Part shown: positions 3,969-44,918 of the stretch, piece by piece
How positions within the stretch are numbered: the stretch's first letter is position 1
Layout of the letters: each line of letters begins with the position of its first letter
Assembly (NCBI GenBank): GCA_039589295.1
Contig: JBDHHR010000005.1
Coordinates: 4,919 to 68,918 of the forward strand
DNA from: Gemmatimonadota bacterium
GTDB taxonomy: Bacteria; Gemmatimonadota; Gemmatimonadetes; Palauibacterales; Palauibacteraceae
DNA length: 64,000 nucleotides
Direction of reading: 5' to 3'
Program-made: the position numbers and the translations under genes
Notes under the pieces: generated by a model
The model's input: the letters and a program-made list of their open reading frames with translations, nothing else
The model's database searches: none
What the model was told of the DNA's origin: nothing

Positions 3969-4658
3969 TCACTGGACAATCCCGCTGAGCACCGCCACCG
4001 GGAAGGACAGATTCCCCACCAGGACCACCAGGGCGATCCCGAGCGCGATCGACCGTCGTAACCGGTCTCCCGGTGAGCCCTCCCATCCGAGCGTGTGAAA
4101 GGCGCTCCAGGTTCCGTGGTACAGGTGGAAACCGAGGGCGATCATGGCGGCCGTGTACGCGACGGATACCGGCAGTACCTGGAAACCGGCTACGAAGTTG
4201 TGATACGCGTCGCCCGGTACGAAATCGGGGTGCAGGGTGCCGGTGGTGAGGTGGAGGATGTGGTAGGTCAGGAACAGGAGCAGCACCACCCCTCCCCACC
4301 GCATCGTCCGCGAGGCATAGTGGAACTCCAGGTGCTCTCGCTTCCTGTACTTCGACCCGTACACCGAGCCTCGCGCCGTCCAGCTCATGACGCTGAGCTG
4401 GTACGCGAAGTAGACGTGGAGGACGAGGGCGAGGATAAGGACGATGCGGGCGATCCACAGGAACTGGCCGTGCCCGAGAAAGGGGGCGCCGAACTCGCGC
4501 AGACCTTCCGCGTAATGGTTAAATGTCTCGCGCCCCAGGTATACCTTCAAATTGCCCAGCATGTGGGCGATGACATACAGGACGAAGAGCGCCCCCGAGA
4601 CGGCCATCGCGACTTTCTTGCCGACCGAGGTGCTGAAGAGGGAGTAAACCCGTCTCAT
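3969..4658 (-). CDS. sdhC: Succinate dehydrogenase cytochrome b558 membrane anchor (single-subunit anchor)
   Basis: A 229-aa polytopic membrane protein with spaced His residues in TM helices (HMLGN, HVYFAY, HLYHGTW). It sits upstream of sdhA and sdhB on the same strand. A GAGGAG RBS lies upstream of the ATG at 4658. Confidence 0.85.
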
Positions 4659-4707
4659 AGGTCACTCCTCTGAATCGCGAGGTTCAGGTCAGTATAGATA
4701 ACAGCTC

Positions 4708-4736
4708 ATCATATAGCGGTATAGAAACCGGTACAA
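4708..4736 (-). promoter_or_regulatory. Sigma-70-like promoter for sdhCAB (-35 TTGTAC, 17-nt spacer, -10 TATGAT on the minus strand)
   Basis: The reverse complement of 4708-4736 reads TTGTACcggtttctataccgctaTATGAT. It lies in a locally AT-richer 150-bp intergenic stretch, about 50 nt upstream of the sdhC RBS/ATG. Confidence 0.5.
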
Positions 4737-4810
4737 GCCGTGGGAGAAGGTCCCCTGGACACCTCTGTTCGCAGCCCAGCAAGCGCCGAAAACAGGGCCG
4801 ACGCCGCGGA

Positions 4811-18180: not shown

Positions 18181-18969
18181 CTAGATGCAGGCCTGCTCCG
18201 GAAGTTCCACCGGGCGGAGGTTGTAGTTGCGGTCCAGAAGGGTGGCGCGGGTGGCCTCGAAGTACTCGTCCCAGAATCCCTTAACGCGCTGCGAGGCGTC
18301 CGTGTCCACCCGGGCGCCAACCACTACCACACACATGCCCGTGAGATCGGGCAGCGTCCCCTTGGCGCTCTCCGCCTGCACCCACCCGGCCGGCGGCATA
18401 CGGCGAAGACCCTCCATGTCGATGGTCCGGTTCGACTGAAGCATGTCGGAGAACATGTACAGAGTGGCGTCACGGCCGGGCACCGCCCTCACGTCTGCCG
18501 CCACGTCGTGCAGTGTCGAGAGAATGTCCGTTCCGTCGATGTTCTCGCGGTCCATCGTATCGGCGAAGGAGACCAGGAAATCCTGAGCATCCTTCAGGAA
18601 TCGCGCCCTCAGGATCGAGTCGCGAGACACCGACTGGTCGGTCCACTGTCGGTTGGGTACCGTCTCTGACCACCGCAGGGGCGGTTCTTCCAGCGAGAGC
18701 TGGAGAAGCTGATGCGCCGCGATTCGATCGCCATGATTCAGCTTGCGGATCCGGTCGTTGGTGAGCTGCCGGGCGATCTCGAGCTGGTGATTGGAGATGC
18801 TGGTCGAGCGATCGTAAACGAAGACCACGAGCTGCGGACGAGACCTCTTCAGTACCCCACCCTCGCCCTCCCCTCCTGCGGCGGTTCCCTCCTGTGTATC
18901 ACAAGCCGTGGTGAGGAACAGGGGGACTGTCAGCGTCAAGGCCGCCACCCTCATCGCGAACCTCACCAT
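18181..18969 (-). CDS. vWA (von Willebrand factor A, MIDAS-containing) domain lipoprotein
   Basis: The signal peptide carries the lipobox LTTAC. A vWA beta-strand with the MIDAS D-x-S-x-S motif (LVVFVYDRSTSIS) is present, together with GTDILSTL (MIDAS Thr loop) and LYMFSDML (MIDAS Asp loop). Its start overlaps the stop of the upstream 644-aa gene by 7 nt. Confidence 0.7.
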   Translation of the reverse strand: MVRFAMRVAALTLTVPLFLTTACDTQEGTAAGGEGEGGVLKRSRPQLVVFVYDRSTSISNHQLEIARQLTNDRIRKLNHGDRIAAHQLLQLSLEEPPLRWSETVPNRQWTDQSVSRDSILRARFLKDAQDFLVSFADTMDRENIDGTDILSTLHDVAADVRAVPGRDATLYMFSDMLQSNRTIDMEGLRRMPPAGWVQAESAKGTLPDLTGMCVVVVGARVDTDASQRVKGFWDEYFEATRATLLDRNYNLRPVELPEQACI

Positions 18970-20897
18970 GCCGTGGCCTCTCCGGTGAAGTTGGCCCGTG
19001 TGTCCTCGAATCTCTCCGCCAGGCGCTGCCGTTCAGCCTCGTAGTCTCCTGGTGCCCGCATCAGCAGCTCTCGCGTTTCCTCTTCCGCCACCTCGAGCGT
19101 CAGCGACACCGGCTCGCGGAACGCCGCTATCTGCCTTGGATCCAGCTCGCGCAGACGGCCGTTCTCCGCCCGGTAAGCGGCGAGGGTGGCTTCCAGTTGG
19201 TGTGCCAAGGCGGGCGCCTCCTTGAGGGGACGCTCTCCAAGCAGGCTTTTCAGATCCCTGACATGGCGAACGACCGAACCCATCGCGTCGGTCACCCTCT
19301 CCTGCGCAGCGTCGCCCATCTCCACCAGGGTTCTTCGCTGCGCCTCATAGGGTCTCTCGTTGAACCTGTCACGCCTTCGATCCCGCTGGTGGAAGTAGGC
19401 CGCAGTGAGCGCCACCAGCACCAGCGTGGTGTTGAGCAGGAGGATAGGGAAGCTCAGGCCGCTCATCGAGGCGGCATACTCGCGCTGTTCCGTGGCCAGG
19501 GCTTCCATGTCATCCGCCCGGTTGGCCTGCTCGTTGGCGGCCACGAGATTTCCGTCCACCCGGAGCCAGCTCGCCGTGCGCCGCAGTTCCTCGATCTTAA
19601 CACTGTCCTGCGCGAACCGCTGGGACGAGACCTCTCCAAGCGTAACGCGCGCCTCGAACAGGACCCCGAGAACCAGGGCCAGACCTATCCCGGAAAGGAT
19701 CATCGGCACAACGAACTCCAGCGGCGATCGCTGGCCGACGGTCTCGCCGGCCCGGCTCGTCGAATTGGTCACCAGCAGGGAACGGAGCGAATGCCCGAAG
19801 AAGTGGGCCAGCACGCAGAGGAAGGTCACAACGCCCGCCGCCAGCAGGGCGGCGTCCGGCCGCAGTATGAACTGCGACACCACCCTCATCCCTCCGGCCA
19901 GCCAGCCCTCGCTCGTCTCGGAGACGAAACGCAGCTGCTGCTCGGTAAGCGGATCGCGGGGAAGGAGCGCGCCGAACACCGGGGCGTTGGCCAGAAACTC
20001 CACCAGTCCGAGGAATCCGATGGCCAGAGCGTACCACCGGGTCTTGAACGATCGTGACCCGTCCTGCTCCTCCTCCTCCTCTTCCTTCGACTGCTCATCC
20101 AGCGCCGCCTGGACCATGCTGCGGCTGGCTTCCCATCGCTTCTTCAGGCGATACAGCTCGCTGGTGATCCGCTCGAACCTATCCACATCCAGGGCGATGC
20201 CGCCGAGCGTACGCGTTACCTTACTCTCGGTCTCCGAAACGAGGTCGTTCAGCCGGCTCCTTTCCCGGCCCTGCCAGTTCCCGAATAGCGCCGCGCAGCG
20301 ATCGCGCAACTCCCGTTCGGACTCCGAGAGGCCCTCTGCATCCTGCACCGGGAGGCCTGCCTGCGCGTCACGTCGAGCCATCTGCAGGGCGGCTGCTCGG
20401 AGCTGTTCGACCGAGAGGCCCACGTTCTCCTCCAGACCCCTTCCCTCGGCCTCCGGAAGTCGGGCTGGATGGGGAGCATCTGCGGCCAAGTGCTTTTCCC
20501 CGGCGATCGGCGCCATGGTCGGTCCGGCGTCCGCCTGTCCATCGAGATCGAAGGTGGCGAACGGGCTGTCCATTCCCTCGCCGTCCCACCCCCGGGGCCG
20601 AGAAGTACGTTCCGGTTCCCAGACCGGCTCCGCCTGCTGCGCCCGTTCCGTCTCAGCCTGTTCCTTGACTCTGTCGAGCCAGGTCGGCTGGCCTTTCGAC
20701 TCCTCCTGCATGCGAGGCTCCGTCGGGATTAGTGAACTGCCGTTCCCGGAAAACGGGATCCGCTTCTCCGCCTGCGGCGCGCCGCCTCCACCCACCTTGC
20801 TGCCTTGCCGCCCGCGCCGGGCGGTCTCGTCTTCCTCCTGCATACAACCACTGTGCCCAGAGTGTAGCCTGACGCCGGACCGGAGAATCGCGTCCAC
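18963..20897 (-). CDS. Large coiled-coil polytopic membrane protein, no recognised family
   Basis: An acidic/low-complexity N-terminus is followed by coiled-coil heptads, 3-4 TM helices (YALAIGFLGLVEFLANAPVFGALL, ALLAAGVVTFLCVLAHFFGHSL, VVPMILSGIGLALVLGVLF, FPILLLNTTLVLVALTAAYF) and a C-terminal coiled coil. The opposite-strand ORF 19405..21003 is a Ser/Arg/Cys-rich shadow. The true start is uncertain; internal candidates are MQEESKGQ and MDSPFATF. Confidence 0.65.
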   Translation of the reverse strand: MDAILRSGVRLHSGHSGCMQEEDETARRGRQGSKVGGGGAPQAEKRIPFSGNGSSLIPTEPRMQEESKGQPTWLDRVKEQAETERAQQAEPVWEPERTSRPRGWDGEGMDSPFATFDLDGQADAGPTMAPIAGEKHLAADAPHPARLPEAEGRGLEENVGLSVEQLRAAALQMARRDAQAGLPVQDAEGLSESERELRDRCAALFGNWQGRERSRLNDLVSETESKVTRTLGGIALDVDRFERITSELYRLKKRWEASRSMVQAALDEQSKEEEEEEQDGSRSFKTRWYALAIGFLGLVEFLANAPVFGALLPRDPLTEQQLRFVSETSEGWLAGGMRVVSQFILRPDAALLAAGVVTFLCVLAHFFGHSLRSLLVTNSTSRAGETVGQRSPLEFVVPMILSGIGLALVLGVLFEARVTLGEVSSQRFAQDSVKIEELRRTASWLRVDGNLVAANEQANRADDMEALATEQREYAASMSGLSFPILLLNTTLVLVALTAAYFHQRDRRRDRFNERPYEAQRRTLVEMGDAAQERVTDAMGSVVRHVRDLKSLLGERPLKEAPALAHQLEATLAAYRAENGRLRELDPRQIAAFREPVSLTLEVAEEETRELLMRAPGDYEAERQRLAERFEDTRANFTGEATAW

Positions 20898-21164
20898 CGA
20901 CCCGTCCGTCCCGCGCCGGTCAGACGCCCTCGATGGTCTATGCAGGAAGGCAAAATCGCTGCCACACCCAAGTAATCTGCCGAATCGTGCGCAAGTCCAT
21001 TAGTGATAATATGTTGACTCCGTCGGAATCGTCGTGACGGGCGCGCGAACTCGAAAAACATTTCGCTCTTGGAGAAATGCTTCGTTTCGAGCCACCGCCG
21101 CGGACGGAGCGACACCGACGTAAGATCATCGATAACACCGGCGGACAACAAGATCAATGCGCGC

Positions 21165-21389
21165 CTAAGCCGTTCGCTCCCGGTGAATCTCCCGTGCCAT
21201 GGCACGCGCCGCCTCGGTCAAGGTCTCCTCCACCCTGAGCAGAGCCTGTTCGAGGACCTGATCGACTTCGGCCTCGGAAGACAGCATCGTTACGGCCCGC
21301 TCCGCGTAGTCGACGATCGCGTCAACCCGCTTGCGCACGTCGCTCTTTATGGCTTGCAGCAGGGCTTCGGTTGTGGCGCTGTACTGCAT
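21165..21389 (-). CDS. Hypothetical 74-aa helical protein
   Basis: The ATG (cat 21387-21389) is preceded by AGGAG at 9-nt spacing. The protein is MQYSATTEALLQAIKSDVRKRVDAIVDYAERAVTMLSSEAEVDQVLEQALLRVEETLTEAARAMAREIHRERTA, with sensible composition. The longer track ORF extension is Arg/Ser/Cys-rich and discarded. Confidence 0.55.
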   Translation of the reverse strand: MQYSATTEALLQAIKSDVRKRVDAIVDYAERAVTMLSSEAEVDQVLEQALLRVEETLTEAARAMAREIHRERTA

Positions 21390-21733
21390 CGGCCCCCAGC
21401 TCCTTTCCAGCCGCGCCTCCTCGGCAACGGACGACCTCCCGACTCTTCCTCTCCCCCGGCCGTAAAGGGCAAGGCGGCTGCCAGCAACCGCAGCGACGCC
21501 GTCGTTGATAGTGTATTTTCTGTTGTGACAGGCAGTTAACTCGTCGGTACTGCATCGGACAGGTTCAGGCGTGAGCGTTGTCCGGCCGGAACTCGCGTCG
21601 CAAATATCCCAGCCGGCTGGCAAAAGGTCTGCGGCGGCAGTTGAGGCCTCGATGAGCGGCCTGGGCGAGCATTCGACCGGTGACCGACGGGCGTCACAGG
21701 AGGCGGCCGGCAGCCGGTTCAAGGAGGAGAGTC

Positions 21734-22186
21734 GTGAGCGCAAGCCGCCAGGGTGCGGGGCGGGAGGTGGACTCGGGATTCGCGCTGCTCGCCAGCCTGG
21801 TGGTTCTGGCCGCCCTCTTCCTTCTGGCTACGGGTACCTTTCTCGCCGCCCGCTTCGAGCTGGCCGTAGGACGGAGCCACCTGACCTCCGTGCGGGCCCT
21901 GTATCTGGCGGAGGCCGGTCTGGCGACTCTCCTCGCCGACACGGGAGGAGCTTCGCCGCCCACGAGCCGCATCTACAGCCTGGAAGCCGGCGCTGCGGTC
22001 GTTACCGTGGATCTCCTGCTGCGTGTCGACAGCCTGACCGACCTCTTCCGGGTCGAGGTCGAAGGGCGTCCCACCAGGCCGTCGGGACGGGGGAGGGCCA
22101 GGCGCACCGTCGGAATCCTGGTCGTTCGCCGTGACGACGGCCGCCTTGTCGCGCGCAGCGGAAGCTGGCAGGAAGCGTTCCGGTAG
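21734..22186 (+). CDS. PilX N-terminal domain protein (type IV pilus minor-pilin-associated family, PF14341-like), orphan
   Basis: The GTG start has AAGGAGGA just upstream. An N-terminal hydrophobic helix (FALLASLVVLAALFLLATGTFLAA) is followed by RFELAVGRSHLTSVRALYLAEAGLATLL, matching the PilX_N pattern (...leermagn.rd.qqAfqaAEAGl...). No other pilus genes are nearby. Confidence 0.6.
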   Translation: MSASRQGAGREVDSGFALLASLVVLAALFLLATGTFLAARFELAVGRSHLTSVRALYLAEAGLATLLADTGGASPPTSRIYSLEAGAAVVTVDLLLRVDSLTDLFRVEVEGRPTRPSGRGRARRTVGILVVRRDDGRLVARSGSWQEAFR

Positions 22187-39782: not shown

Positions 39783-39851
39783 TGTAGTGGCACGTCGATT
39801 GCCCCATCGGGGTAACGGTAAGCTACGTCTACTGCGGAGCGGGATCGGCAA

Positions 39852-41315
39852 GTGAGTACATGCACCGGAATCGGCCCGTTCGACGAGCGCCTGGGCGACC
39901 TTCGCTCAGGCGGAGTGTATCTCCTCGCGGGAATGCCCGGCTCGGGCAAGCTCGCCTTCATTCTGCAGTACCTCGCCGAGGGAGTGGGGCACGGCGAACG
40001 GGTGGCCCTGCTCAGCGGCTACGAGCCGGCGGAGGTCTTCGAGCAGGCCGACCACTGGGGACTGGAACTCGAGAAGGCCTGGAAGAGCGACGCGCTGGTA
40101 CTGGCCGGGTTCCGCGGCGAGTATCCGCGGCGGATCCTGCACGCCCCGGATCCCGGAGAGGCGTTCGCCGAGCTCGATCGACTGCTGGACGGGGAGGTGA
40201 CGCGCCTCGGCGTCGATCCGGGCATGCTGCTGTGGGAAACGCGGGCGGGTACGGCCATGGCGCACCAGTTTCTCCAGTGGGCCGACGGTCTGGGCGCCAC
40301 CACCATGGCCACGCTGGTTGGCGACCTGAAGGAGTCCCCCGGACCCTCTACCGAGTGGGTGCTGCAGCGCGCGACAGGCGTGTTTCACTTGGCTCGACTG
40401 GCGGGCGGGCTGCACGAGCTGGCTATCTACCGGATTCACCCGCCGTTGGAGAGCACCGGGCCCATTACGCTGGAGCTGATGCCGGGCGCCGGCTTCGTAG
40501 CTCCTACGGGCCGGATCGGCCGGCGCCGTGGCGACACGGCGGCGGCAGCCGAGGACAGGCTCCTGCTGATGCGGCTGGCAGCCGGACCACCACCCGACGT
40601 CGAGGGCTGGCTCCGCCGGACGTATACGGTGACGGAGGCAAAGGACCCTCTGGAGATGGTCTCTCGCCTGCAGGGTGAGCCGTTCGGCATGCTATGCATT
40701 TCCATCGATCGCGCCCGAACGGAAGAAGCTCTGCAGATCTGCCAAACCGTCCGTCCCATGACCAGCGCGGCTCTCGTCCTGGTGTCCGGCGAACGATTGC
40801 GCTCGGTCGATCGGGCCCGCGCCATAGAAGCCGGCGCCGACGACGTCCTGACGAACGAAGTGAACATCCGGGAGATGGAGTCGAGAATCCGGCGGGCGGC
40901 GACGTGCGCAGGTGAGCGACCGCGGGCCGTTGATCAAGACGGGGGGAGTATCCGGACGCCGGATCCCGTCGATGAGCTCCTGTCGCGAAAAGCCTTCGCG
41001 GCGATCGTGAACGAACGGCTGGCATCGAAGGAGTTCGGTTTCTTCACGTTTGTCGGGCTGGCCGGCGCTCTTCCGCAGGGGACGAGCGAGGCCCTGCGCG
41101 AGAGCATCCGGGTGGAGGCGGGCGATGTGGTCGGGGCGCTGGACGATGGATTCGGAATCGTGCTCCAGGAGGCCCGAGCCGGGCACGCTGAAGGGTTCCT
41201 CGGACGGGTGCGTGCGGCTCTGGCCGAACAACTGGGCGAGGGCGTGGAGCTCGAGACCGAGATCCTGGCCAGCCCAGACGACGCAGAGCGGATTCGGGCG
41301 CTCCTCCCCGGGTAG
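39852..41315 (+). CDS. KaiC/RecA-like ATPase fused to a receiver-like domain and a degenerate GGDEF-like domain
   Basis: The N-terminus (GIGPFDERLGDLRSGGVYLLAGMPGSGKLAFILQYL, Walker A) has the KaiC/RadA-type P-loop. A mid region resembles a CheY-like receiver (MLCISIDRARTEEALQICQTVRPMTSAALVLVSGE...AIEAGADDVLTNEVNIREMESRIRRA). The C-terminus aligns to GGDEF topology but with GGDEF replaced (RKAFAAIVNERL...FGFFTFVGLAG...DVVGALDDGFGIVLQE). It is the first gene of the polysaccharide locus. Confidence 0.7.
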   Translation: MSTCTGIGPFDERLGDLRSGGVYLLAGMPGSGKLAFILQYLAEGVGHGERVALLSGYEPAEVFEQADHWGLELEKAWKSDALVLAGFRGEYPRRILHAPDPGEAFAELDRLLDGEVTRLGVDPGMLLWETRAGTAMAHQFLQWADGLGATTMATLVGDLKESPGPSTEWVLQRATGVFHLARLAGGLHELAIYRIHPPLESTGPITLELMPGAGFVAPTGRIGRRRGDTAAAAEDRLLLMRLAAGPPPDVEGWLRRTYTVTEAKDPLEMVSRLQGEPFGMLCISIDRARTEEALQICQTVRPMTSAALVLVSGERLRSVDRARAIEAGADDVLTNEVNIREMESRIRRAATCAGERPRAVDQDGGSIRTPDPVDELLSRKAFAAIVNERLASKEFGFFTFVGLAGALPQGTSEALRESIRVEAGDVVGALDDGFGIVLQEARAGHAEGFLGRVRAALAEQLGEGVELETEILASPDDAERIRALLPG

Positions 41316-41354: not shown

Positions 41355-43574
41355 ATGGAGAGATCGACGGTCAGGAGGCGAAGGAGATTCCCCTACTGGG
41401 TCGTGTACACCGGCATCACGACCCTGCTCCTGGCTCTGACGGGGTTTCTGGTTCTCATCGTCCTGCCGGAGCGCTTCGTCCTCCAGGCCGGCCTTCGCGA
41501 ATCCGGTATCTCCTTCCCGGCGTCCACCCTCGGGTTCGGGCCTCCGGCGCGCTCGCCGGTGGTGGAGCCTCCTCCTCCGCCGCCGCGTCCCGTCGCGCCA
41601 GCGATCGGCCCGGCCGAAGCGTTATGGAGTGAACTCACGCCCCTTCTGCGTGTCGGCCGCTATCACGAGGCACTGGCCCGCATGGAGGATTACCTGGCCG
41701 TCCACCCGGGAGACCTCGGAGTCCGGCGGGAACGAGCCAGGACCCTGGCCGGGACCGGCGACCGGCAGCGGGCGAGCGAGGCCCTCGGGCGGCTGGCCGA
41801 CGAACCTGGCGAGCTCCAGGACGGCCTGGCTCTCGCCCGCTTCATTCGTGATGCGGGCGAGTTGAGCGAGGCGGTCGAGATCTACCGGACGCTTGTCGAC
41901 AGGTACCCGGACGATGCGGATCTCAGGTACGAGTTGGCGCAGGCGCTCATGTGGTCGGAGCGCTACCGGGAGGCGGAGGCCGAGTTCCGCGCGCTAATCC
42001 GGCTGCGGCCGACGGAGGATGTGTACCGCCTCGAGCTGGCGCGGGTCCTGTACTGGACCGACAGGCTCGAGGAAGCGCGATCCGTTCTGGCTGCTATCTC
42101 CCCCGAGGCCGAGAGCCGGATGGAAGCCGACGCGCTCGACGCCGAGCTGGTGACTCTGCTTGCTCCTGTCGAGCCGGAACCCGAGCCGGTGGACCAATCA
42201 CCGCTGGCTCGAGCGAGGCGTGCGGCGGCAGCCGGCGAGCTGCAGTTGGCCGCCGAGCTCTACCGGGAAGCCCTGCAGGCGGATTCAGGAGACGCCGTAC
42301 TGTGGCTGGAATGGATAGACTTTCAGCAGCGGCGGCTCGGGGACCTGGAGGGCGCCAGGGACGAGCTCATCGCGTACGATGGGCGCTTCGGTCTTTCCCC
42401 CGAGCTGGAGTACCGGCTGGCGCTGCTGCACACGTGGACCGAGCGGAACGAGGAGGCCCGGCTCATCCTCCTCAGGCTCCTGGAGACCAGTCCGAACCGG
42501 GCAGAGGCCTGGAGCCTGCTCGGCGATGTTTATCGCTGGAGCGGGGAAAGACCCGCCGCGGCCGGTGCCTACCGCCGGGCCCTCGTCCTGGATCCGGCAG
42601 ACCCGCGGGCGCTGGCGGGTGCCGCGGACCTCGGATTGCAGCGGGAGCGCATCGTCGCGGCTCGCGAGCGGCGGGGCTACGGGCCACGGGCGAGCGCCTA
42701 CGGCGACTCGGATGAGTATCGGAGATTCGAGCTGGAGGCGGACGCGAGGTTAGCCTTCCCACGCAGCAGTTCGGCTCTCCGGGTGGCAACCGGCTACCGG
42801 TGGCTGGAGGGACTGGATGTTTCCGGCGTCGAGACCACCGACGATGGCCCTTACACAGAGGCCGAGCTCATCCACTGGTGGCGTGAGGCGACCATCCGCA
42901 CGGCCCTTCGAGCCGGAGTACAGTACCTGCGAGGATTCGGCCTCGAGCCGAGTTTCGGCCTGGACGTCGAAGTGCCCGATGCGGGGGGATTCGGCCTCCT
43001 CGGAACGCTGGAGCACGCACCCGCGTACCCGCTCACGGCCACCCTGGAGAGCGTGCAGCAGCCGGTACGAGCCGACCGACTCTTCGTGTCCCTGTTCCGC
43101 TCGCTGGGCGAGCGATGGAGCGTGGGCGGTACCGCGGATGTGGCCGTTCTGACCCATACGGAGGCGAACAACATACGGTGGGGCGGGCGGCTCACGCTGG
43201 GATGGAATGTCTCGCGCCGGGTCGTCGGAGAGCTGAGCTCAAGCTACCTGTCATACACCGACGCGGCCCCTCGCAGCGCGCTGCGAGGGATCTACTGGGA
43301 CCCGGCTTCCTTCTGGGCGACGACGTTGTCGCTGGGCCTGCGGGAACGGCCCGAACTGGGCTGGGGGTACGGCGTCATGCTGACGGGAGGCGCTGCCCTG
43401 ATGGACGAACGCAGCGCGACCGGTACGGTGTGGCTGCCACAGTTTGCGGTCGAGGGGAAGCTGTCGCAAACTGGCCGGAGGCAGGACTTCGAGCTGAGAG
43501 CCTTCTACCGCCGGGGACGGGAGAGGGATTACAGCTCGCTCGGGCTCGACCTGAAGCTGCTCGTGAGGCCGTAG
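41355..43574 (+). CDS. TPR-repeat protein with beta-rich C-terminal domain, PgaA/BcsC-like polysaccharide export candidate
   Basis: An N-terminal TM/signal anchor is followed by a Pro-rich linker, ~8 TPR-like repeats (many W..LG/A..Y...G motifs), and a ~280-aa C-terminal region with alternating hydrophobic patterns ending LGLDLKLLVRP, which is beta-barrel-like. It sits immediately upstream of the PgaC-like synthase. Confidence 0.65.
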   Translation: MERSTVRRRRRFPYWVVYTGITTLLLALTGFLVLIVLPERFVLQAGLRESGISFPASTLGFGPPARSPVVEPPPPPPRPVAPAIGPAEALWSELTPLLRVGRYHEALARMEDYLAVHPGDLGVRRERARTLAGTGDRQRASEALGRLADEPGELQDGLALARFIRDAGELSEAVEIYRTLVDRYPDDADLRYELAQALMWSERYREAEAEFRALIRLRPTEDVYRLELARVLYWTDRLEEARSVLAAISPEAESRMEADALDAELVTLLAPVEPEPEPVDQSPLARARRAAAAGELQLAAELYREALQADSGDAVLWLEWIDFQQRRLGDLEGARDELIAYDGRFGLSPELEYRLALLHTWTERNEEARLILLRLLETSPNRAEAWSLLGDVYRWSGERPAAAGAYRRALVLDPADPRALAGAADLGLQRERIVAARERRGYGPRASAYGDSDEYRRFELEADARLAFPRSSSALRVATGYRWLEGLDVSGVETTDDGPYTEAELIHWWREATIRTALRAGVQYLRGFGLEPSFGLDVEVPDAGGFGLLGTLEHAPAYPLTATLESVQQPVRADRLFVSLFRSLGERWSVGGTADVAVLTHTEANNIRWGGRLTLGWNVSRRVVGELSSSYLSYTDAAPRSALRGIYWDPASFWATTLSLGLRERPELGWGYGVMLTGGAALMDERSATGTVWLPQFAVEGKLSQTGRRQDFELRAFYRRGRERDYSSLGLDLKLLVRP

Positions 43575-43577
43575 AAG

Positions 43578-44918
43578 ATGGCGAGCCGACTGAGGCACCT
43601 GGGCCCCCTGCTGGTGATCGCAACCGCGATCGCGCTCACATCTCTGTTCTTCATTTGGCTGGTGCGTTCGCCGGACCGGCTACGGGTGTTCGTCATCCAG
43701 CTTCTCCTGATTTCCCTGGTGATCTTCCTCGGGATCCTGCTGATCCGTTACTTCACCCTCCTGTGGTTCGGATACCTGCAGCACCAGGAGAGGGGGATCC
43801 GGGGAGATGTGTCTGATGTCGAGCTGCCGCCGGTCTCGGTGGTAGTACCGGCTTACAACGAGGCCACGGTCATCGGCCGCGCCATCGACAGCCTTCTGCG
43901 GCTGGACTACCCGCTGTACGAGGTGATCGTGGTGGACGACGGTTCGGGCGACGGGACGCTCGCGATAGCGGGCGCCAAGGAGGGCCTCCACGAGGGAGTG
44001 GAGGTGCGGGTCTTCTCCAAGCCCAACGGGGGAAAGGCGACTGCCCTGAACCTGGGCATCCACAACGCCCGTTACCCGTTCATCCTGTGCATGGATGCCG
44101 ATTCGATAGTAGAACCGCAGCTTCTGCGAACGTCCGTTCCACACTTCCGCGATCCGTCGGTCGGCGCCGTGGCGGGAAACGTCAAGGTGGAGAACCGCCA
44201 CGGGCTGCTGACCCGACTGCAGGCGCTGGAGTACATCGAGGGACTCAACATGCCGCGCCGCGCCCAGGGCTTCATAGCCGCGGTGAACATAGTGCCGGGA
44301 CCGGTGGGCGTTTTCCGTCGCGAGGCGCTGACCGACGTCGGCGACTACGATACCGACACCTTTGCGGAGGACGCGGACCTGACGCTGAAGCTGATCACCG
44401 AAGGGTGGAAGATAGTCTACGAGGATCAGGCGATCGCCTGGACGCAGGCGCCCGAACGTTTCATCGACCTGGTTCAGCAACGCTACCGCTGGACCCGAGG
44501 TATCCTGCAGGCTGTCCGGAAGCGCAAAGGGCTCCTGTGGCGCCCTGTCCCCGACTTCCCGCTGTGGCTGTCGGGCACGGAGATGGTGTTCGAGGCAATC
44601 ATCTGGCCGATAATGAACGTCTACGCTCACCTGTTCTTCGCCTTAGTCGCGCTTCTGTTCGGCCGCGGGGAGCTCCTGTTGTACTGGTGGATCCTCCTCA
44701 CCCTGCTGGACCTGGTGGCGGCGCTGGTGACCGTCTCGATGGAGGAGGAGTCTCTGTCGCTCGTTCCGCTGGCCATCGTTTACCGCTTCTTTTTCATTCT
44801 GTTTCTGGACGTGACCAAGGCGTTCGCCTCGGTCGAGGAGTTCTTCCGCTTCGGCATGGAGTGGGACAAGCTGCGGCGCGTCCCCGTGGGGAGCGGCGTT
44901 GAGGAGAGTGCCATATGA
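43578..44918 (+). CDS. pgaC: GT2 processive beta-glycan synthase, PgaC/IcaA-like (poly-beta-1,6-GlcNAc synthase family)
   Basis: Motifs VIVVDDGSGDGT, CMDADS and QQRYRWTRG (QxxRW) are present, plus two N-terminal and three C-terminal TM helices. Length is 446 aa, as in PgaC. Confidence 0.85.
   Translation: MASRLRHLGPLLVIATAIALTSLFFIWLVRSPDRLRVFVIQLLLISLVIFLGILLIRYFTLLWFGYLQHQERGIRGDVSDVELPPVSVVVPAYNEATVIGRAIDSLLRLDYPLYEVIVVDDGSGDGTLAIAGAKEGLHEGVEVRVFSKPNGGKATALNLGIHNARYPFILCMDADSIVEPQLLRTSVPHFRDPSVGAVAGNVKVENRHGLLTRLQALEYIEGLNMPRRAQGFIAAVNIVPGPVGVFRREALTDVGDYDTDTFAEDADLTLKLITEGWKIVYEDQAIAWTQAPERFIDLVQQRYRWTRGILQAVRKRKGLLWRPVPDFPLWLSGTEMVFEAIIWPIMNVYAHLFFALVALLFGRGELLLYWWILLTLLDLVAALVTVSMEEESLSLVPLAIVYRFFFILFLDVTKAFASVEEFFRFGMEWDKLRRVPVGSGVEESAI

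Follow-up and report, generated by a model that had tools for sequence, protein, structure and literature searches.

Two overlapping minus-strand genes, here called A and B, are probably an uncharacterised cell-surface module, located in the 64-kb stretch of Gemmatimonadota DNA that we analysed (the window). This assignment follows from the togetherness of the two genes across Gemmatimonadota, the apparent sigma-54 promoter that precedes them in this organism, and their place at the end of a Tad operon in a sister clade. A belongs to a previously undescribed family, and B, judged from its structural model, is a very divergent vWA branch that is recognisable by fold and motif only.

The coupled genes and their products

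The genes, with the predicted features of their products, are the following:

18963..20843, minus strand: gene A, inner-membrane protein of 626 aa that founds an undescribed family
19389..20039, minus strand: A membrane core, from hydropathy and positive-inside analysis
19971-20039, minus strand: A TM1
19854-19970, minus strand: A periplasmic loop after TM1
19788-19853, minus strand: A TM2, followed by a cytoplasmic loop and TM3
19650-19715, minus strand: A TM3
19455-19649, minus strand: A periplasmic helical hairpin
19389-19454, minus strand: A TM4
19134..19175, minus strand: cytoplasmic C-terminal motif of A, YRAENGRLRELDPR
18963..18969, minus strand: 7-nt A/B overlap ATGGTGA, stop codon of A and start codon of B (translational coupling)
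18181..18969, minus strand: gene B, 262-aa periplasmic vWA/MIDAS lipoprotein
18901-18915, minus strand: B lipobox LTTAC
18799-18813, minus strand: B DRSTS
within 18517-18537, minus strand: B T147 (GTDILS)
within 18436-18459, minus strand: B D175 (FSDML)
18331-18333, minus strand: B C213
18187-18189, minus strand: B C261

The open reading frame of A reaches a GTG at 20897 (18963-20897, 644 aa), while the database copy P0001 (626 aa) starts at the ATG at 20843; another candidate start, the ATG at 20711, has GGAG 7 nt upstream and agrees with the start of the homolog P0002. GC3 is 0.79 in A and 0.81 in B, equal to that of the flanking housekeeping genes, which marks both as coding and native in composition. 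The ATG of B lies inside the TGG-TGA of A (GCATGGTGAGG), with GGAGAGG 10 nt upstream, and overlaps of -1, -4, -7 or -8 nt are present in most relatives. Down to about 29% identity, B lies immediately 3' of A in 76 of the 79 related loci, the other three being truncated; these 79 comprise 75 related loci (72 with B directly downstream) and four outgroup loci (4/4, 29-31% identity), whose pairs sit in unrelated contexts. The named sources of A-B relatives are Gemmatimonadota without exception. Almost all carriers are uncultured MAGs.

Every one of the 316 homologs of A is annotated as hypothetical, none has a Pfam domain, and a set of 1.84 billion proteins contains just 168 representatives of the family. 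Apart from RPAP2, its single PDB profile match, which is spurious and of low complexity, A matched no entry of Pfam, NCBIfam, PADLOC, PHROGs or the PDB. Foldseek of its model returned only generic coiled coils (E above 0.01, TM below 0.2), and no likeness in sequence or fold to the stator-like proteins MotA, ExbB, TolQ or ZorA was found (Pfam, PADLOC, NCBIfam, Foldseek). The protein is made of a variable N-terminus, a long helical domain, four TM helices corresponding to its four hydrophobic segments, and a helical C-terminal domain. Its AF2 model is all-helical (pLDDT 72), with low confidence in the TM region (pLDDT 44-75). From the six K/R immediately past TM4 and the net-basic loop 2-3, both large helical domains are predicted to be cytoplasmic, and only a 39-aa loop and the 65-aa helical hairpin to face the periplasm.

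Conservation in A is highest in the TM helices (column identity 0.82-0.97 across the membrane core), which hold a polar tetrad (E282, N286, H347 and N471) that is kept family-wide, with D or E at 282. Among the soluble parts, the periplasmic loops are the most conserved: both are acidic and near-invariant, and their acids D297, E301 and D330 are also kept throughout the family. The cytoplasmic C-terminal motif has the family consensus [FY]-R-x-E-N-[AG]-R-x-R-G-[LI]-D, in which R558, N561, R565 and D568 do not vary among 28 sequences of 23-70% identity.

B is predicted to be a bacterial lipoprotein by its signal peptide and lipobox Cys. Its AF2 model (pLDDT 77, pTM 0.75) gave vWA domains for all of the top 50 Foldseek matches in the PDB (E 4e-6 to 8e-5, probability 1.0), with modest TM-scores of 0.36-0.62, the best being those of CLCA1 vWA (TMt 0.62). 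In sequence searches, no match at threshold was obtained in Pfam, NCBIfam, PADLOC or PHROGs; Pfam PF00092 VWA reached 14 bits over residues 48-89 only, below the 23.8 gathering cut-off, and the best PDB profile match was a non-significant one to the alpha2delta-like CACHD1 (E 0.12). The MIDAS residues D53, S55, S57, T147 and D175 are invariant among 35 close and 9 deep homologs down to 28% identity, as are the lipobox Cys23, C213 and C261. The window lipobox is LTTAC and that of homologs L[AV][AG]C, and the residue after the lipid Cys (+2) is Asp in the window and Gly in most homologs. In E. coli, Asp at +2 is an inner-membrane retention signal.

Much of what an earlier note had read from this DNA is borne out by these data. 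The two minus-strand frames with their 7-nt overlap are confirmed, A is coding (GC3 and its 316 homologs) and has no relative in Pfam, NCBIfam, PADLOC, PHROGs, PDB or Foldseek, and the expected membrane core of three to four helices contains four hydrophobic segments. In B, the LTTAC, DRSTS, GTDILS and FSDML motifs lie at the predicted codons, and the proposed vWA fold is supported by the structural matches and the invariant MIDAS. A check for co-occurrence, which the note had suggested, found the pair in all related loci that had space for both genes. The coiled coils placed on either side of the membrane core hold in part: helical domains do flank it, but both are predicted to be cytoplasmic and only the loops periplasmic.

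Inheritance, genomic context and regulatory DNA

In a gene tree the clades match genomic context, and the window clade and the Tad-linked clade are sisters. Synteny of the locus is stable across about 40 species-level genomes and, together with codon usage, indicates vertical inheritance of the pair. In the sister clade, A-B are the last two genes of a Tad (type IVc) pilus operon, right after a Vps4-like AAA+ ATPase, in the co-directional and closely spaced order TadG-like/CpaE/CpaF/TadB/TadC/DUF192/AAA+/A/B, with at least three different contexts downstream. The AAA+ gene precedes the pair in 26 of 33 sister-clade loci, most of these 26 also having Tad genes, and in its Walker regions the protein resembles Vps4/spastin/CdvC and not MoxR. 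PF13400 (TadE/G pilin-like) is carried there by a separate protein (fam12), and no vWA domain was detected on the TadG-like protein. B did not match PF13400 and has a lipoprotein signal, and is thus not a TadG/CpaL-type pseudopilin.

The features upstream of the pair in the window are:

20950..20964, minus strand: P(AB), sigma-54-type -24/-12 element TGGCAGCGATTTTGC
21128..21137, minus strand: TGTTATCGAT, a conserved element that contains a palindrome, about 170 nt 5' of P(AB)
21165..21389, minus strand: gene S, conserved 74-aa acidic protein without hydrophobic segment
21469..21483, minus strand: P(S), second sigma-54-type element TGGCAGCCGCCTTGC
21597..21626, minus strand: tandem element TTTTGCC...TTTGCGAC, about 115-145 nt 5' of P(S)
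21680..22186, plus strand: PilX-like type IV minor pilin, 168-aa ORF divergent from the A-B/S genes

No Tad genes are present within the window. The PilX-like gene is syntenic in 28 close-clade loci; Pfam PF14341 PilX_N is matched by 14 of 19 homologs (best E 4e-6), although the window copy alone gives no score, and the top PDB match of the family profile is the pilus-tip protein ComZ (E 0.0033). The PilX_N motif (class III signal G/F-A-L, hydrophobic helix, AEAGL) is visible by eye, and the true start is probably internal, before G/FALLASL. The gene stands alone, and plain synteny could account for its conservation. Since outgroup pairs have no pilus, pilin-like or S-like neighbours, the pilus link of the pair may be secondary or merely positional. 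Genes for redox or stress functions (msrB, ferritin, thioredoxin) also lie in the neighbourhood, as part of the clade synteny, and the relative L004 adjoins T1RH-like and FRG-domain genes.

S lies upstream of A in the same direction of transcription. It was found by tblastn in 38 close-clade loci (59-79% identity over about 72 aa), giving 39 S-bearing sequences with the window, and is called as a 74-aa gene in loci L002 and L003. It matched no family in Pfam, NCBIfam, PADLOC or PHROGs, and has no similarity to the sister-clade AAA+ protein or to the N-terminus of A, of which it might have been a remnant.

Elements were scored as sigma-54-type when a -24 GG and a -12 GC (TGGC-N7-TTGC) occurred at the right spacing upstream of a gene, as is the case for P(AB) and P(S), the latter beginning 95 nt and ending 80 nt before the start codon of S. 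Exact elements are rare, with only three matches in the window, two of them at this locus, and a background of 0.046 per kb. One is present between S and A in 39/39 S-bearing loci, and in 36/39 the S ATG is preceded by one at a distance of 55-126 nt. They are absent before the pair in the Tad-linked and outgroup clades. From these motifs, the pair appears to use a sigma-54 promoter in the window organism. Searches of the window and of about 1 Mb from related loci for GAFTGA and RpoN-box motifs, and Pfam on 10 window ORFs, found neither rpoN nor a GAFTGA activator. Two further elements may be sites for regulators: TGTTATCGAT is a candidate regulator or activator site, with ATCGATAA/GTTATCGA at the corresponding place in 25-26/39 loci, and the tandem TTTTGCC...TTTGCGAC is a candidate upstream activator site, with TGGCAAA/TTTGCCA-type heptamers at the equivalent position in 27/36 loci. 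In the S-A spacer, Rfam gave a chance CcsR1 match alone (E 0.57, far under the gathering score), a repeat search returned nothing besides the two sigma-54 elements, and a scan for sigma-70 promoters and terminators was uninformative.

The spacer 20898-21164 has a GC of 0.569 against 0.663 for the window. The earlier note had called it the lowest-GC DNA of the window; it is among the three lowest 267-nt regions, but positions about 4451-4800 are lower (0.543). The associated hint of horizontal acquisition is contradicted by native codon usage and conserved synteny, and the low GC is explained by promoter and regulatory elements; as read from its motifs, this border of A is a promoter and regulatory region and not foreign DNA. 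The remark that no MoxR ATPase, kinase or phosphatase is nearby holds in the window, while the sister clade does have an AAA+ protein, of Vps4/spastin type and not MoxR. The pilus connections, namely the sister-clade Tad operon and the PilX-like neighbour here, had been missed.

Proposed mechanism and competing readings

We tentatively favour, as a real possibility short of a probable one, that A and B together form a two-subunit complex, specific to Gemmatimonadota, that spans the inner membrane and is an accessory of pilus or surface adhesion or sensing. B would dock on the periplasmic face of A, the strict A-B coupling and the periplasmic loops as the most conserved soluble parts of A arguing for direct contact. 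Coordination of the metal at the B MIDAS would be completed by one of the conserved acids of A (D297, E301 or D330) or else by a ligand that is external or belongs to the pilus, and occupancy or tension would be passed via the polar TM core (D/E282, N286, H347, N471) to the cytoplasmic domains. Those domains would make contact with S in the window organism and with the AAA+ ATPase in the sister clade. Any coupling between periplasmic B and the cytoplasmic ATPase must pass through A. The module would be turned on by a sigma-54 activator. A bolder version seems quite improbable: a new trans-envelope transducer in which the MIDAS clamps an ion-binding four-helix core coupled to coiled coils and the Vps4-like AAA+, acting as a type IVc accessory motor or mechanosensor, with a stand-alone sigma-54 version here.

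In the alpha2delta subunit of CaV channels, which is membrane-tethered, and in CLCA1 with TMEM16A, an extracytoplasmic vWA MIDAS binds an acidic loop residue of a polytopic membrane protein. The proposed B-A contact would parallel these as a mechanistic analogy only, homology being limited to the vWA fold and A not being a known channel. In mechanism the module would further resemble PilY1 and CpaL, the vWA mechanosensors of type IV pili. B recalls the PilY1/PilC tip adhesins that work with PilVWX in type IVa pili, by its vWA/MIDAS, its link to a PilX-type minor pilin gene and the proposed role in adhesion and mechanosensing. PilY1, however, is about 1000 aa or more, has a C-terminal beta-propeller, is not a lipoprotein and has no A-like partner, whereas B has 262 aa and no pilVW or pilE operon is present here.

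vWA/MIDAS domains take part in adhesion and sensing by Tad and type IV pili (PMC12607857, PMC12428579), and pili and the cell exterior are commonly under sigma-54 regulons (PMC3162934). In CpaL/TadG of Caulobacter crescentus a Tad minor pilin and a vWA domain are fused (PMC12607857); B shares the canonical DxS/TxS/T, T, D MIDAS, and the sister-clade pair closes a Tad operon. Unlike B, a small lipoprotein without pilin module, CpaL is pilin-like, its N-terminus being of prepilin type, and contains a beta-rich insert; moreover, sister-clade operons have a separate TadG-like gene and the window has no Tad genes.

That A is an ion channel, transporter or ion-coupled protein unrelated to pili, with B as a periplasmic auxiliary or gating subunit, is unlikely but has several points in its favour: the acidic residue, two Asn and His kept family-wide within TM helices that are the most conserved part of A, the bare pair without pilus genes as the ancestral or outgroup state, and the CLCA1 and, non-significantly, CACHD1 matches of B. 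Yet A resembles no transporter or channel family or fold and has just four TM helices, modelled with low confidence, and this reading leaves the large cytoplasmic coiled coils and the Tad and AAA+ linkage unaccounted for.

We consider rather unlikely a psp-like sigma-54 envelope-stress response, in which S and the helical domains of A would act on the membrane or an activator while B senses periplasmic damage or metal. The classical psp operon is also sigma-54 dependent, two adjacent sigma-54-type promoters precede a small soluble protein and a membrane protein here, and redox and stress genes abound nearby, though by clade synteny. Nevertheless, no PspA/IM30 (ESCRT-III-like) domain was matched in A or S (Pfam, NCBIfam), nor is there PspB/C or PspF similarity, the sigma-54 promoters are confined to one clade while the pair is phylum-wide, and in the sister clade the pair is embedded in a pilus operon.

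B could instead be an exported outer-membrane or surface adhesin, with A as a mere anchoring, sorting or regulatory partner and no transmembrane signalling, which is also a rather improbable arrangement. CglB of Myxococcus (PMC9946355) and the Bd0875-type proteins of Bdellovibrio (PMC12428579), to which B can be likened by architecture, are lipoproteins that comprise little more than a vWA domain with functional MIDAS, and Gly, not Asp, follows the lipid Cys in most B homologs. These adhesins are outer-membrane or surface proteins that work with the Glt or predation machinery, but translational coupling to a 4-TM inner-membrane protein is not described for any of them; the window B has the retention-type Asp at +2, and the strict coupling to A with its conserved periplasmic loops argues for direct contact.

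The MoxR-vWA systems (RavA-ViaA; Bat/BB0172-BB0173; PMC3893208, PMC5700661) resemble the pair in their membrane-associated vWA and, in the sister clade, in the AAA+ immediately upstream. A MoxR-vWA or Bat-type operon was rejected, no MoxR AAA+ being adjacent in the window and the sister-clade AAA+ being of Vps4/spastin/CdvC type; unlike Bat operons, the pair has no DUF58 or TPR Bat component. Ternary vWA conflict systems and TerY-P triads were likewise rejected, as neither MoxR/STAND NTPase with effector nor kinase with phosphatase was found in the window or related loci, and a defence system was ruled out by the lack of PADLOC and PHROGs matches. It is very improbable that the pair is an anti-phage or conflict system or an island acquired horizontally: vWA proteins do occur in conflict systems (PMC7159879), low-GC DNA flanks A, and L004 adjoins T1RH-like and FRG-domain genes, but the window has no NTPase, effector or MoxR partner, codon usage is native, synteny is stable over the roughly 40 genomes, gene-tree clades correspond to context, and promoter and regulatory elements explain the low GC.

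Significance for Gemmatimonadota

The designation of the pair by the earlier note as a candidate uncharacterised envelope module is correct, given the new A family, the vWA support and invariant MIDAS of B, the conserved overlap and the co-occurrence. If the complex favoured here is real, A would define a new membrane-protein family marked by its four TM helices, the D/E-N-H-N tetrad within the membrane and the RxENxRxRGxD motif on the cytoplasmic side, and the pair would be a new bacterial vWA/MIDAS arrangement, with a periplasmic lipoprotein obligatorily coupled to a membrane protein. In the sister clade, the position of the Vps4-like AAA+ gene, with the Tad platform genes on one side and the pair on the other, hints at an undescribed type IVc accessory activity. 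For the Gemmatimonadota, which are abundant in soils and marine sediments and genetically almost unexplored, the pair would provide a first handle on pilus and surface biology and on sigma-54 regulation.

The gene pair and its two proteins

The two minus-strand open reading frames reported in the earlier note were recovered in the window. They overlap by 7 nt, the ATG of B lying within the last codons of A (GCATGGTGAGG), with GGAGAGG 10 nt upstream of the B start.

18963-20897, minus strand: gene A, longest ORF, from GTG (644 aa)
18181-18969, minus strand: gene B (262 aa)

An identical database protein to A (P0001) starts at ATG 20843, and residues of A are numbered here on this 626-aa form. 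Another candidate start is ATG 20711, which has GGAG 7 nt upstream and agrees with the start of the homolog P0002. The third-position GC content of A (0.79) and B (0.81) is like that of the neighbouring aldehyde dehydrogenase, ferritin and FKBP genes, indicating that both are coding and compositionally native.

B is a predicted periplasmic MIDAS lipoprotein. The LTTAC lipobox and the DRSTS, GTDILS and FSDML motifs described earlier are all present at the codons assigned to them. No curated family threshold is reached (Pfam VWA 14 bits versus a cut-off of 23.8), and the proposed vWA fold is borne out by an AlphaFold model (pTM 0.75, built from 35 sequences) whose top 50 PDB matches are all vWA domains (E ~4e-6, probability 1.0), including those of vWF-A1, collagen VI, BatB, CLCA1, integrin beta and ITIH, with modest TM-scores of 0.36-0.62. 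The MIDAS set noted earlier (D53-x-S55-x-S57, T147, D175) is invariant in close homologs and down to 28-33% identity, as are the lipobox Cys, C213 and C261; invariance of the latter two would fit an extracytoplasmic protein. The scores below profile thresholds, the exclusively vWA fold matches and the invariant MIDAS and lipobox Cys thus identify B as a very divergent vWA/MIDAS lipoprotein, belonging to the superfamily by fold and MIDAS, not by profile score.

A is without known relative: no match was found in Pfam, NCBIfam, PADLOC or PHROGs, nor against PDB sequences, in agreement with the earlier note, which recognised no family, and Foldseek with its model returned generic coiled coils only. 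This model is all helical (pLDDT 72, pTM 0.47), confident for the soluble helices and uncertain in the membrane region. In the alignment, a variable, low-complexity N-terminus of ~140 aa precedes strongly conserved sequence, in which the following features were identified.

Residues 269-291, 331-352, 377-398 and 464-485 of A: TM helices 1 to 4, by hydropathy
D/E282 and N286 (TM1), H347 (TM2), N471 (TM4): intramembrane polar tetrad, invariant family-wide
D297, E301, D330: periplasmic acids, invariant family-wide
[FY]-R-x-E-N-[AG]-R-x-R-G-[LI]-D: cytoplasmic motif near the C-terminus, invariant family-wide

Six Lys/Arg directly after TM4 and a net-basic loop 2-3 indicate that both termini are cytoplasmic. 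The topology suggested earlier, with coiled coils on both sides of the membrane core, is therefore revised, hydropathy and the positive charges after TM4 placing both large helical domains on the cytoplasmic side. Only a 39-aa loop and a 65-aa helical hairpin are periplasmic, and these are acidic and nearly invariant (column identity 0.89). A spans the inner membrane, carries its helical domains in the cytoplasm and exposes conserved acidic loops to the periplasm.

Distribution and two pilus-gene contexts

Homologs in a collection of 5.8 billion proteins (316 of A, 402 of B) are all unnamed or “hypothetical”, none has a Pfam domain, and the named sources are all Gemmatimonadota MAGs (marine benthic group, Palauibacterales). 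When 1.84 billion cluster representatives were searched exhaustively with a profile, only 168 relatives of A emerged, the distant full-length tier being assigned, where named, to Gemmatimonadota or Longimicrobiales and likewise lacking Pfam domains. The 71 loci from a scan of species-representative genomes are essentially all from Gemmatimonadota. Two contigs, L006 (CAXMRU010000320.1, labelled Akkermansiaceae) and L075 (JBOGJI010000049.1, labelled Thermoanaerobaculia), carry a typical Gemmatimonadota pair and synteny (A identity 67% and 48%) and are probably mis-binned.

The co-occurrence of A and B, for which the earlier note proposed a search, is conserved, B directly following A in 72 of 75 loci (the remaining three are truncated). 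The same order is found in four outgroup loci with just 29-31% identity in A and unrelated surrounding genes, and A/B overlaps of 1-8 nt recur among relatives. The two genes therefore form a conserved autonomous unit, an obligate gene pair.

A neighbour-joining tree resolves the closer relatives as two sister clades and places Longimicrobiales-type pairs as the outgroup; the two clades show independent associations with pilus genes. The window clade (38 loci and the window) has a conserved gene, S, upstream of A.

21165-21389, minus strand: gene S, conserved 74-aa acidic protein with no family match

A 192-aa ORF at 21165-21743 (minus strand) was rejected as an over-extension of S. A 168-aa gene transcribed divergently belongs to a family of which 14 of 19 members match PilX_N (best E 4e-6) and whose profile has the pilus-tip protein ComZ as top PDB match; the window copy gives no PilX_N score alone. 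Synteny in this clade extends to a hydrolase, msrB and a small membrane-protein gene, and none of the Tad genes of the sister clade is present in the window.

In the sister clade (31 further species-level loci and L001), A and B come last, at the 3' side, in a row of genes that all run in one direction: TadG/TadE-like pseudopilin (PF13400, E 2e-9), CpaE/TadZ, CpaF/TadA (T2SSE, E 4e-61), TadB, TadC (T2SSF), DUF192, a 486-aa AAA+ ATPase, A and B. Only short gaps separate A from the ATPase gene, and the downstream context is of at least three kinds.

L052:6495-7955, with equivalents in 26 sister-clade loci: 486-aa AAA+ ATPase, between DUF192 and A

No Pfam model matches this ATPase at threshold. 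Its Walker A and sensor regions resemble Vps4, spastin and CdvC, it is not MoxR, and its N-terminal domain may, as judged by eye, be winged-helix-like. It may represent an undescribed accessory ATPase of Tad operons. Six Gemmatimonadota genomes harbor two copies, as paralogous arrays of Tad genes, AAA+ ATPase, A and B (L048/L052 on CP070670.1 at ~2.05-2.08 Mb, L046/L059, L049/L051, L050/L063, L055/L061 and L058/L060); on the closed bin741 chromosome two such copies lie ~17 kb apart.

Sigma-54-type elements of the window clade

Alignment of the spacer between S and A revealed a conserved block, TGGC-N7-TTGC, which is the -24/-12 consensus of sigma-54 promoters at the right spacing. The window contains three exact matches versus 1.8 expected by chance, two of them at the A/S locus.

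20950-20964, minus strand: sigma-54-type element P(AB), TGGCAGCGATTTTGC, upstream of A
21469-21483, minus strand: sigma-54-type element P(S), TGGCAGCCGCCTTGC, starting 95 nt and ending 80 nt before the S start codon
21128-21137, minus strand: palindrome-containing TGTTATCGAT, conserved, non-coding, ~170 nt upstream of P(AB)
21597-21626, minus strand: tandem TTTTGCC...TTTGCGAC, conserved, non-coding, ~115-145 nt upstream of P(S)
39788-39802, plus strand: third sigma-54-type element, TGGCACGTCGATTGC, ~50 nt upstream of a KaiC-like ATPase gene
39852-41315, 41355-43574 and 43578-44918: ORFs after TGGCACGTCGATTGC, for the KaiC-like ATPase, a TPR protein and a family-2 glycosyltransferase

Each of the 39 S-bearing sequences (38 loci and the window) has an exact element between S and A, and 36 of them have one 55-126 nt upstream of the S start, the background being 0.046 per kb, with most background matches the P(AB) and P(S) sites themselves; none is present in the Tad-linked and outgroup clades. 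P(AB) and P(S) are predicted to be sigma-54-type promoters from their motif, its spacing, their position and their conservation, a feature of the window clade, and TGTTATCGAT and the TTTTGCC/TTTGCGAC tandem are candidate activator or regulator binding sites. Neither the window nor ~1 Mb of related loci was found to contain rpoN or a gene for an enhancer-binding protein. Rfam found nothing on the spacer, and a CcsR1 sRNA candidate at 21399-21513 (plus strand; 16 bits versus a gathering score of 65, E 0.57) was taken as a chance match. The position of TGGCACGTCGATTGC and the TPR and family-2 glycosyltransferase genes following the KaiC-like ATPase suggest that these three genes may form a sigma-54-driven exopolysaccharide-type operon.

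The earlier note took 20898-21164 for the lowest-GC DNA of the window; it ranks in the bottom three regions (56.9% versus 66.3% for the window) but is not the lowest. As a predicted sigma-54 regulatory region, this spacer would account for the low-GC border without horizontal transfer, and codon usage and synteny argue against the acquisition hinted at earlier. The lowest stretch, at ~4451-4800 (0.543 over 267 nt), is below the spacer.

Proposed role and its alternatives

Very likely, A and B are the two subunits of a genuine envelope module that represents a new family; a full pilus-associated transducer is a tentative reading, plausible but somewhat doubtful. In such a transducer, B would be seated on the periplasmic face of A, the sixth ligand of its metal ion being supplied either by D297, E301 or D330 of A or by an external or pilus ligand. 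A would relay the state of B via its polar TM core to the cytoplasmic domains, where S (window clade) or the AAA+ ATPase (sister clade) would act, and the outcome may be an accessory for adhesion or sensing, associated with the surface or with pili. Such a role would fit sigma-54, which often governs pili and the cell exterior (PMC3162934), and the vWA/MIDAS domains of Tad and type IV pilus adhesion and mechanosensing proteins such as CpaL (PMC12607857), PilY1, PilC1 and Bd0875 (PMC12428579) and CglB (PMC9946355).

The pair is not a MoxR-vWA/Bat system, a ternary/TerY system, a TadG/CpaL pseudopilin or a PilY1; for each of these a defining feature was looked for and not found. By analogy, its role appears closest to that of pilus adhesins and mechanosensors of the vWA type, and its proposed mechanism to that of the lipid-anchored vWA auxiliary subunits that serve polytopic membrane proteins. 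The intramembrane tetrad of A, and an ancestral pair that is bare, could also suggest an ion channel or transporter with B as its vWA auxiliary subunit, which we consider unlikely. Slightly less probable still, and comparable to each other, are a sigma-54-controlled, psp-like envelope-stress module and an exported adhesin B for which A is a mere anchor. A defence system or foreign island is very improbable.

The designation as a candidate uncharacterised envelope module proposed earlier is upheld; the topology, the reading of the low-GC flank and the context have been corrected. The module is clear in anatomy, signature motifs and predicted regulation, and nearly all its carriers are uncultured. 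It is restricted to one phylum and couples a new membrane-protein family to a divergent vWA lipoprotein, and it would be best placed among vWA-based surface or pilus accessory systems.
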